From: a virus
Taxonomy: Duplodnaviria > Heunggongvirae > Uroviricota > Caudoviricetes
DNA length: 11,200 nucleotides
Strand: one strand, 5' to 3'
Virus record (IMG/VR): IMGVR_UViG_2529292736_000009
Span: 1-11,200 of that record
The translations under genes and the position numbers were made by a program. Shown here piece after piece: positions 6,766-8,163 of the stretch (within the stretch, counting starts at the first letter, position 1; every line of letters starts with the position of its first letter). The notes below the pieces were generated by a model that searched no databases, was not told the DNA's origin, and saw nothing but the letters and a program-made list of their open reading frames with translations.

Positions 6766-7812
6766 ATGAGTATGGTTGATTTATATTCGCCTACACAGCT
6801 TGTGCAGGTGGCTAATGCTGAAGATGTGCAAAAAAAATTAAATGCGTTGTTTACCAGTTTGTTTTTCACTCGCTCGGTAATGTTTGAATCGAGAGACATT
6901 ATTCTTGATACGATCGACGATCCAAATATCCCGATCGCGGCGTTTTGCTCTCCTATGGTGGGCAGTAAAGTTTCACGAGATGAGGGATACGAATCAAAAA
7001 CAATTCGCCCTGGCTATATGAAACCGAAAAGCAGCATTGATCCAAATAAGTTAGCTGTGCGCCCTGCTGGTGTATCACCTGAACAATACAATGCTTTTGG
7101 AGCGCGTAATATTAAAGTTAAACAGGCGATTGTAAATCAGGCTAAAGCTATTCGTGCACGTATTGAATGGCTTGCCGTTCAGGCAATCACAACGGGGAAA
7201 AATATCATTGAGGGCGATGGTATTGAACGTTATGAGCTGGACTGGAATATTAAACCACAAAATATCATCACTCAGTCTGGCGGTGCTGAGTGGTCAGGTA
7301 AGGATAAAGAAGCTTTTGATCCAAATGATGATATTGAGAGCTACGCAGAATTTAGTGAGGGAGTCACTAATATTATCATTATGGGCGGTAATGTATGGAA
7401 GAAATACCGTTCATTCAGGGCGATAAAAGAGGCTCTGGATACTCGTCGTGGTTCTAATTCCGAACTGGAAACGGCCCTTAAAGACCTTGGTGATTCGGTG
7501 AGTTTTAAAGGGTATATGGGCGATGTTGCGATTGTTGTTTACAGCGGGCGTTATACCGACGAGGACGGAACTGAAAAATATTTCCTTGATCCTGATTTGA
7601 TGGTGCTTGGCAATACGGCTCTTCAGGGGATTGTCGCTTATGGCGGTATTCAGGATCCGGAGCTAATCCGGATGGGGCTGACTAAAGCCGAACTTGCACC
7701 GAAAAACTATATTGTACCTGGTGATCCGGCTATTGAATATGTGCAGACACATTCAGCACCACAGCCAATACCGGCCCGCATCAATCGTTTTGTTACCGTT
7801 CGCATTGGCTAA
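6766..7812 (+). CDS. Major capsid protein, lambda gpE family
   Basis: 348 aa beginning MSM like lambda gpE. Long colinear matches to gpE as I recall it, e.g. NIITQSGGAEWSGKDKEAFDPNDDIESYA, FRSFRAIKEALDTRRGSNSELETALKDLGDSVSFKGYMGDVAIVVYSGRY, MVLGNTALQGIVAYGGIQD, PKNYIVPGDPAIEY. Alternative start ATG 6772 has better SD spacing. Confidence 0.85.
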   Translation: MSMVDLYSPTQLVQVANAEDVQKKLNALFTSLFFTRSVMFESRDIILDTIDDPNIPIAAFCSPMVGSKVSRDEGYESKTIRPGYMKPKSSIDPNKLAVRPAGVSPEQYNAFGARNIKVKQAIVNQAKAIRARIEWLAVQAITTGKNIIEGDGIERYELDWNIKPQNIITQSGGAEWSGKDKEAFDPNDDIESYAEFSEGVTNIIIMGGNVWKKYRSFRAIKEALDTRRGSNSELETALKDLGDSVSFKGYMGDVAIVVYSGRYTDEDGTEKYFLDPDLMVLGNTALQGIVAYGGIQDPELIRMGLTKAELAPKNYIVPGDPAIEYVQTHSAPQPIPARINRFVTVRIG

Positions 7813-7821
7813 GGGGGAGCA

Positions 7822-8163
7822 ATGGCTACTCATTACACTGAACTCATGTCTGGCACTGAAGCACTGGTTACTACGCTGGGGATATTTTCAGCCAATAAAG
7901 GGGTAATACCTGCGTTTACGCCACTGATGCAGGAAGATGCAACTGGTGCGCTAGTGGTATGGGATGGAACGAGCGCAGGCAAAGCGGTTTATGTTTCCGC
8001 TGTACAAATCGACACAGCGAAAAAAACACAGGCACAGGTTTATAAGACAGGTGTTTTAAATGTTGATGCTCTGAACTGGCCTGAGTCTGTAAAAGAACTG
8101 TCGGCAAAGGTTGCCGCGTTTGTTGGCTCAGGTATTTCTGTTCAGCCGCTGGCTCGTGTGTAA
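7822..8163 (+). CDS. Head decoration protein, lambda gpD family
   Basis: 113 aa, AAGGGGGAG SD; conserved blocks shared with gpD: THY near the N-terminus, TPLM, LVVWDGT, YKTG, NWPE, AFVGSGIS. Confidence 0.75.
   Translation: MATHYTELMSGTEALVTTLGIFSANKGVIPAFTPLMQEDATGALVVWDGTSAGKAVYVSAVQIDTAKKTQAQVYKTGVLNVDALNWPESVKELSAKVAAFVGSGISVQPLARV

Follow-up and report, generated by a model that had tools for sequence, protein, structure and literature searches.

This study concerns a stretch of DNA of 11,200 nucleotides (the window; positions 1 to 11,200 of IMG/VR record IMGVR_UViG_2529292736_000009) and, within it, a pair of adjacent genes that encode homologs of the major capsid protein E and the decoration protein D of phage lambda, here called E' and D'. 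Judging from its genes and their order, the element that carries the pair is almost certainly a lambda-parasitizing phage satellite of Escherichia coli, of the Gram-negative phage-inducible chromosomal island (PICI) kind, and a sister of EcCICFT073. It is likewise nearly certain that E' and D' are complete, selected shell-type proteins. A satellite E/D pair is in itself already known: that of EcCICFT073 was reported and deleted, and its capsid protein crystallized (3BQW), years ago. The observation of the pair itself adds nothing new. What is new here is the satellite-only clade formed by E', the strong selection on the pair and its intactness, its distribution over 397 of 5426 complete E. coli genomes, and the presence of the same allele in islands embedded in the head genes of helper prophages.

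Capsid and decoration proteins of the island

The open reading frame (ORF) of E' spans positions 6766 to 7812 on the plus strand. Its first ATG, at 6766, gives the protein of 348 amino acids (aa) proposed in a first-pass annotation of this DNA; the ATG at 6772, located 5 nt after an AAGAGGA motif, is a better-placed start and yields a 346-aa protein, as in RefSeq. The 346-aa form is 100% identical to a protein from another E. coli locus (L005), annotated as WP_000228102.1. In profile searches, E' matched the Pfam family Phage_cap_E (PF03864; E = 4.8e-41, positions 4-327 of 329) and PHROG 29, major head protein (1.9e-89). Among solved structures, it matched lambda gpE over its full length (7vi9; 5.7e-76, residues 7-347 against 4-340) and, with a value of 1.1e-121, a crystal structure from E. 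coli CFT073 (PDB 3BQW) whose sequence is that of EcCICFT073 c1499. These full-length profile and structure matches place E' in the lambda gpE family (PF03864, HK97 fold). An AlphaFold model built with 44 homologs (pLDDT 79.7, pTM 0.81) superposed on 3BQW with a TM score of 0.90 and on lambda gpE with scores of 0.84-0.87, and it displays a long spine helix at residues 108-141 and a flexible E-loop around residues 56-72. Sequence identity is 41.8% to lambda E and 54.6% to EcCICFT073 c1499. E' is collinear with gpE, with no domain inserted or missing, and residues that are fixed within each clade but differ between E' and phage E cluster at 121-150, in and just after the spine helix, and at the C-terminus (320-346).

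D' (7822-8163, plus strand; 113 aa) belongs to the gpD/SHP family of trimeric head cements (PF02924), again on full-length matches to profiles (Pfam HDPD, 2.3e-15; PHROG 49, head decoration, 1.2e-26) and to solved structures (phage 21 SHP, 1td0, 2.8e-16; lambda gpD, 1c5e, approximately 1.3e-12 to 1.8e-12). It is 54% identical to EcCICFT073 c1500 and 32-38% identical to phage D proteins (32% to lambda D). E' precedes D', separated from it by a 9-nt spacer, whereas lambda and the nearest phage relatives have D followed by E. The first-pass annotation had described full-length E-like and D-like genes in this reversed order and had proposed to compare both with the gpE and gpD families by profile search, and the E-like protein with gpE by structure prediction; on each of these counts its description holds. 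Directly downstream lies a second gene for an AlpA-family helix-turn-helix (HTH) protein (8175-8558, plus strand; Phage_AlpA, 1.4e-08; phrog_2790, 1.8e-48). A gene of this type directly follows D' in most members of the clade, and it occupies the same position in islands of Serratia, Kluyvera, Kosakonia, and Superficieibacter.

Two features were seen upstream of E'. A hairpin with an 11-bp stem lies between ssb and E' (6571-6600); its T-run is on the minus strand, which has no evident gene there. A weak sigma-70-like site (TTCGCA-16-TAGAAT, 6704-6731) precedes E' by 40 nt, within DNA of 38% G+C; since a promoter scan gave fewer matches than in shuffled sequence, this putative promoter is weak evidence.

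Distribution, selection, and lineage of the E'-D' cassette

The E'-D' cassette, counted at a nucleotide identity of at least 84%, is present in about 7% of the complete E. coli genomes. Within this species it occurs at several sites and with different integrases, namely abgR|smrA (the window and the syntenic locus L001), tRNA-Pro near yejM (L004), and cspD|clpS (L005), and it was also found within gene E of a lambda-type prophage (L006). The E'-D'-HTH module, with approximately 85% identity at the E' protein level, occurs in Kluyvera, Kosakonia, and Superficieibacter, and the last two carry the island's small terminase gene (terS') as well. A scan of GTDB with narrow peptide patterns returned three loci.

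E' and D' are under strong purifying selection. Pairwise dN/dS ranged from 0.03 to 0.08 for E' and from 0.06 to 0.09 for D', values no higher than those of the island's ssb and terS genes; dS relative to c1499 is saturated. Among 87 copies examined, and leaving out those cut by contig ends, all 86 E' genes and 85 of 86 D' genes were intact. In L001, the closest syntenic island (strain WCHEC020032), ssb is annotated as frameshifted, and E' and D' are intact.

Sequence comparisons indicate that E' is an old satellite-only lineage and no recent loan from a helper, because of a gap in identity, the island contexts of its relatives, and a fully supported clade. In a search of 5.8 billion proteins, relatives of E' spanned 99% to 50% identity, followed by a gap, and the next set began at 47% or less, which is also the highest identity of the clade to any phage E. 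No phage protein more than 60% identical to E' was present among 50,697 phage records. A neighbor-joining tree separated 45 proteins of the upper set (at least 50% identity) from 23 of the lower set with a bootstrap of 100/100 when one lambda-E/E' chimera (P0046) was left out; with the chimera included, support for monophyly was 5/100. Satellite context was confirmed for a minority of the 45 clade proteins: six contexts outside E. coli (Kluyvera, Kosakonia, and Superficieibacter, at approximately 85% each, and Serratia, Edwardsiella, and Lelliottia, among which the values are 74%, 59%, and 52%) and a Salmonella member (55-57%) are all int-alpA-primase islands with E' followed by D'. The nearest members of the lower set lie within complete Nu1-A-W-B-C-D-E-FI phage modules. 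Recent capture of the gene from a helper was considered and ruled out, given that identity to phage proteins stops at 47-60% and that the satellite clade is supported at 100/100.

In IMG/VR, 80 loci carry an E' at least 98% identical to that of the window, and many of these are islands lying within the late genes of lambda-type prophages. In the commonest embedded pattern, seen in approximately 30 of the 80 loci in a database that favors prophage regions and so inflates the embedded fraction, helper E is split into 82 + 262 aa around the island; others adjoin gpA or gpB. The embedded relatives measure approximately 10.4-11.6 kb, as estimated from the coordinates of the helper E fragments.

Three unusual capsid genes surfaced among the relatives. 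P0046 (L100, 2801-3829, on an ENA metagenome scaffold of 4432 nt) is a hybrid that matches lambda E at ~99-100% over its first two thirds and window-type E' at ~97-100% over the rest, with lambda-type B, C, and D upstream and D' plus the AlpA-like gene downstream. The switch point falls in the conserved LDTRRGSNS motif, at 8-11 identical bases shared by both genes, and P0046 is either a real helper-satellite recombinant or else an assembly chimera. P0005 (463 aa) and P0081 (470 aa) each join capsid E and decoration D Pfam domains on one protein. The length of P0005 equals that of E', D', and the spacer together, pointing to loss of a stop codon or to an error in sequencing, and the identity of P0081 (41%) is of the phage type.

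The island and its packaging module

The island measures approximately 10.44 kb and occupies the chromosomal site abgR|smrA. In the syntenic L001, a genome 97% identical, abgR directly precedes the integrase gene and smrA comes after the last island ORF. A 26-bp att repeat, CGGTGTAGTTAATGGTGTAGTTAATT, lies between abgR and int in L001 (attL, corresponding to ~22-47 nt upstream of window position 1), and its second copy at 10394-10419 is the attR core and right end of the island in the window, with the core gene smrA following from 10637 onward. From this repeat and the abgR and smrA flanks, it follows that the island is complete in the window except for attL. An origin as a prophage remnant was also considered; the precise att ends, the abgR and smrA bounds, and the complete PICI gene set rule it out.

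Parts were assigned from Pfam and PHROG profile matches of the window ORFs, and all long ORFs but one run from left to right. At the left end is a tyrosine integrase gene (1-1230, plus strand; Arm-DNA-bind_3, 2.8e-18; Phage_integrase, 7.4e-17; 87% identity to the EcCICFT073 integrase), followed by alpA (1597-1785, plus strand; Phage_AlpA, 1.3e-17; 97% identity to EcCICFT073 AlpA), the master regulator and excisionase of Gram-negative PICIs. A YlcI/YnfO gene (2545-2850) lies on the opposite strand, and small ORFs come next in order. The replication module comprises genes for a DUF4222 protein (3918-4217, plus strand; Pfam, 4.4e-24; 69% identity to its EcCICFT073 counterpart) and a RepA-family helicase (4214-5629, plus strand; AAA_25, 4.8e-44), annotated in RefSeq as 'helicase RepA family protein' in the syntenic record. 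An iteron replication origin (5629-5870) follows, with six tandem 13-bp units of AAAAGTGGGGAGT at 5629-5706 detected by TRF and scattered copies to ~5870. Next are genes for a conserved hypothetical protein (5883-6134, plus strand; phrog_1231; 73% identity to its EcCICFT073 counterpart) and a single-stranded DNA-binding protein (SSB; 6131-6553, plus strand; Pfam SSB, 8e-16; 69% identity to its counterpart). After E', D', and the second AlpA-like gene come the packaging region described below and the last conserved island gene (9567-9851, plus strand; phrog_1561; 71% identity to the last EcCICFT073 gene).

Several smaller features accompany this map. The region 1838-2545 is the start of a 396-aa ORF that continues antisense through the YlcI/YnfO gene and has a weak Bro-N match (E = 0.032, under the Pfam cut-off); the counterpart region in related islands has nothing annotated or a truncated pseudogene, and the ORF is probably a decayed 'Bro zone' gene. 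Five GTGAC motifs at exact 10-bp spacing (9858, 9868, 9878, 9888, and 9898) lie after the last ORF, ~500 bp before attR, and four are present in the syntenic L001; these could possibly be arm-type integrase sites or AlpA binding sites. In the att core at 10394-10419, a 12-mer (GGTGTAGTTAAT) is present twice over. A DNA motif that is doubled close to the attP core has been described as unique to helper-embedded PICIs (PMC10111431). An Rfam scan of the window detected no RNA family, and ARAGORN detected no tRNA.

The packaging region opens with a lambda-type cos (8575-8750, plus strand). The 12-nt cohesive end of cosN, GGGCGGCGACCT, is present exactly at 8615-8626, and over approximately 8575-8650 the alignment with lambda cosQ-cosN shows only a few mismatches and is near-identical up to position +34. 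Divergence begins where lambda has cosB, and the cosB region of the island is its own. Beyond it lies the gene for TerS' (8760-9302, plus strand), a Nu1-type small terminase subunit (PF07471, 1.3e-24; phrog_57, 6.9e-51) that is a full-length homolog of lambda Nu1 with 43% identity. Comparison by domain showed no clear contrast between the DNA-binding and gpA-binding ends (35% against 39-51%), and a PDB search returned no match for TerS' or for the last ORF. TerS' occupies the slot that rppA holds in EcCICFT073, where the gene matches RppC (PDB 6HLK) and is flanked by two cosN copies; the window island is thus a TerS-type sister of the Rpp-type EcCICFT073. Both rppA (L003, 15559 (+), 16309 (-)) and terS' (8760-9302) adjoin cos in this shared slot, and the N-terminus of RppA weakly matches the Nu1 profile (E = 0.025). 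Rpp may have arisen from the part of a small terminase that binds DNA.

A tblastn search of the window with lambda Nu1, A, W, B, C/Nu3, D, E, FI, and FII matched only Nu1, D, and E, and no Pfam or PHROG match to portal, protease/scaffold, large terminase, lysis, or tail genes was found in the island. The first-pass annotation had called the element a satellite on the strength of its integrase, AlpA, RepA-like helicase, and iterons, had listed portal, protease, scaffold, and large terminase as missing, and had left the first three to a helper. All of these hallmarks were recovered, the element proved syntenic with EcCICFT073, and the boundaries leave only attL outside the window, which supports the view that portal, protease, scaffold, and the large terminase (TerL) must come from a lambdoid helper. 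The further statement that no other head gene accompanies the pair was mistaken, as terS' and a lambda cos are both present.

Possible roles of the pair and comparison with known systems

The role of E' and D' is the weak step of the explanation as a whole, in contrast to the firm identities of the parts. We tentatively favor, as quite possible but short of probable, that they are a matched shell and cement pair that supplements or replaces helper E and D in lambda heads of normal size. The late module is ordered E', D', the AlpA-like HTH gene, a lambda-type cosQ/cosN with its own cosB, and the Nu1-type TerS'. TerS' would bind the island cosB and recruit the helper large terminase gpA, which would cut the lambda-identical cosN, and island concatemers would be packaged in place of helper DNA; this half of the scheme seems fairly safe from the sequence of the module. 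E' and D' would be made alongside the helper head proteins and would assemble on helper portal, protease, and scaffold, giving ordinary lambda-type heads in which they are mixed with helper E and D or stand in their place. They would thereby supplement or back up the shell supply and set no new head size, and approximately four island copies, together 41.8 kb or 86% of lambda, would go into one head. The pair would be dispensable when helper E and D are plentiful and would count where the helper's shell genes are disrupted or limiting, as in sister islands that have this E' allele and are lodged in the helper E, B, or A gene. Since the cement protein is co-inherited with the shell protein and both are strongly selected, a role in expanded, DNA-filled heads appears more fitting than that of a poison or regulator, and established gpD biology suggests that both proteins would be present in such heads.

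Published work bears directly on this scheme. EcCICFT073 carries the same gene pair, c1499 (PDB 3BQW) and c1500, documented since 2018 (PMC6092414). The two genes were tested because Ccm, a capsid homolog of SaPIbov5, resizes heads; deletion of c1499 or c1500 left both island transfer and lambda interference unaffected, and the packaged EcCICFT073 DNA was all phage-sized (PMC6092414). When each post-ori gene of EcCICFT073 was expressed singly from an arabinose-driven promoter, only c1503 (rppA) inhibited lambda, and deleting c1503 restored plaquing with c1499 and c1500 still present (PMC6739421). A capsid gene is found in 21 of 29 reference Gram-negative PICIs, where it is not required for transfer and has been suggested to be a back-up copy, and satellites are known to capture late-gene blocks from helpers (PMC10111431). 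In SaPIbov5, Ccm occupies pentamers and alters capsid shape (PMC8569155), and PmCI172, which forms small heads, encodes a capsid homolog (PMC6092414, PMC6893505); Dokland's review compares the capsid genes of E. coli PICIs with both (PMC6893505). Among the papers searched, we found no later functional study of PICI capsid or decoration genes. Because of the EcCICFT073 deletion and packaged-DNA data, we take head size to be normal and helper E and D to be sufficient in the laboratory. The back-up role is favored by the embedded islands in IMG/VR, and the same idea has been put forward before (PMC10111431).

Several points weigh against this explanation. Because E' and helper E share ~42% identity, it is not assured that E' would co-assemble with E or with the helper scaffold Nu3. 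The strength of purifying selection fits poorly with a merely redundant role, and the EcCICFT073 homologs had no phenotype in the assays used (PMC6092414, PMC6739421). Embedded islands restore the helper gene on excision, so that the need for a back-up copy is not obvious, and their share among the IMG/VR loci is inflated. The published experiments, moreover, concern a 55%-identical relative of the Rpp type. The first-pass annotation held that dispensability of the pair for transfer and particle size would refute its proposal; dispensability was found for the EcCICFT073 homologs, and the window island, being of the TerS type, lies outside those data.

That proposal, a smaller capsid or a shell that excludes helper DNA, finds no support in the EcCICFT073 results, nor is its claim to be a distinct hijack strategy supported, as satellite capsid homologs are known from SaPIbov5, PmCI172, EcCICFT073, and the majority of reference Gram-negative PICIs cited above. 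In its general form, E' alone or as Ccm-like capsomers would direct a smaller shell with room for one or two island genomes but not for the 48.5-kb genome of the helper, and D' would cement it. We consider this unlikely, even with the precedents of Ccm in pentamers and of PmCI172, the clustering of satellite-specific conserved residues on the spine helix and C-terminus, and the narrow range of island sizes. On the assumption that capacity grows with T^1.5, a T=4 head would be the right size for two copies (20.9 kb), but this is numerology and not evidence. Against it stand the phage-sized DNA and the unchanged transfer and interference of the c1499 and c1500 deletions (PMC6092414), the collinearity of E' with gpE, and the fit of four island copies in a normal lambda head. 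Interference is a general PICI trait, and mixed capsomers of proteins that share 42% identity could be defective; E' and D' might then poison helper head assembly, or build shells unusable by the helper, and so cut helper yield for the benefit of island or host. This is very improbable given that rppA alone among the singly expressed post-ori genes inhibits lambda and that its deletion restored plaquing (PMC6739421), that loss of c1499 or c1500 brought no relief of interference (PMC6092414), and that a poison has no need of a matched cement protein.

The lack of phenotype of c1499 and c1500 and the capture of late genes by satellites (PMC10111431) could also mean that the pair is a functionless passenger, picked up recently from a helper by recombination or left by a decayed prophage. 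We find this hardly credible for a clade that is monophyletic, satellite-only, and deeply diverged, with saturated dS relative to c1499, dN/dS of 0.03-0.09, nearly all copies intact, an E-then-D order kept across genera, and an island that has precisely defined att ends and all the genes of a PICI. In a role outside capsid building, the pair would widen the helper range to defective or mismatched lambdoid prophages, or would serve as a decoy or trigger for capsid-sensing host systems. Two points count for it: defective lambdoid prophages are abundant in E. coli genomes, and selection is strong despite an absent phenotype with a competent helper (PMC6092414). Such a role is nonetheless quite improbable, for the helper-range variant is a special case of the supplementing pair favored above, and the decoy variant has no sequence support. 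It is unlikely, but conceivable, that E' and D' build satellite-specific shells on the portal and scaffold of some lambdoid helpers, perhaps with a smaller triangulation number holding one or two island genomes. If so, TerS-type islands would be a working intermediate between two kinds of PICI, the classical one that steals everything and the capsid-forming one that takes only tails, and EcCICFT073 would have shown no phenotype because of the helper or the assay chosen.

Why satellites keep E' and D' is a question somewhat sharpened by the selection and lineage results, since the pair is selected as strongly as the island replication genes and is spread across several enterobacterial genera, yet has no known phenotype. 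A solution would tell whether natural lambdoid transducing particles consist partly of satellite proteins, with implications for helper range, for the stability of particles, and for how capsid-forming satellites arose.

In its general plan, the island conforms to Gram-negative PICIs, with int at one end, alpA, replication genes with an ori, and a late packaging zone, nearly all in one direction. Its size falls within the usual range (about 10-20 kb), it has direct repeats and a site of its own, it lacks lysis, tail, portal, and large terminase genes by the searches described above, and it carries a packaging-capture device in the form of lambda cosQ-cosN and the Nu1-type TerS'. No Pfam or PHROG match to the P4-like families (sid, psu, delta, alpha-type primase) was found among the island ORFs, and no direct comparison with P4 proteins was made. 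EcCICFT073 has int, alpA, YlcI/YnfO, an icd-like gene, small ORFs, DUF4222, a replication protein, ori, the hypothetical gene, and ssb in the same order, followed by E', D', a packaging gene with flanking lambda cosN, and the last conserved ORF, and its helpers are lambdoid, as would be those of the window island. It differs in having a D5-type primase in place of the RepA-type helicase, RppA, which binds helper TerS, in place of a complete Nu1-type TerS, an unrelated ORF in place of the second AlpA-like gene, and an additional PerC gene, and its integration site is roxA|phoQ. Helper-embedded PICIs, of which 11capE is an example (PMC10111431), share the E'-D' cassette (95-100% protein identity) and the general layout, but these lie inside the helper E, B, A, or C gene, often without TerS', whereas the window copy lies between abgR and smrA, apart from any helper.

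More distant systems share individual parts. SaPIbov5 is a cos-packaged satellite of Staphylococcus aureus that, like the window island, encodes a homolog of its helper's HK97-fold capsid protein and has no portal or large terminase. Ccm forms pentamers and turns prolate heads into small isometric ones (PMC8569155), an effect that is not known of E'; Ccm has no partner decoration protein, and its host and helper are unrelated to those of the window island. Phage lambda has Nu1, D, and E of the same families and fold (43, 32, and 42% identity, respectively) and a nearly identical cosQ-cosN, but in the order cos-Nu1-A-W-B-C-Nu3-D-E as opposed to E-D-cos-Nu1, and with a different cosB; its A, W, B, C, Nu3, FI, and FII have no counterpart in the island. 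Capsid-forming PICIs such as EcCIEDL933 likewise possess their own capsid protein and small terminase, but they bring the full head set (portal, protease, connectors, and TerL/HNH) and take only helper tails, and the complete window island has none of those additional genes. A PICI of Lelliottia sp. SL45 (L096, 10001-12752) carries E' (52% identity) and D' followed by an S49 peptidase of the gpC type, and a Phage_HCP gene near alpA. With more of the head set than the window island, it appears by its gene content to stand between classical and capsid-forming PICIs.

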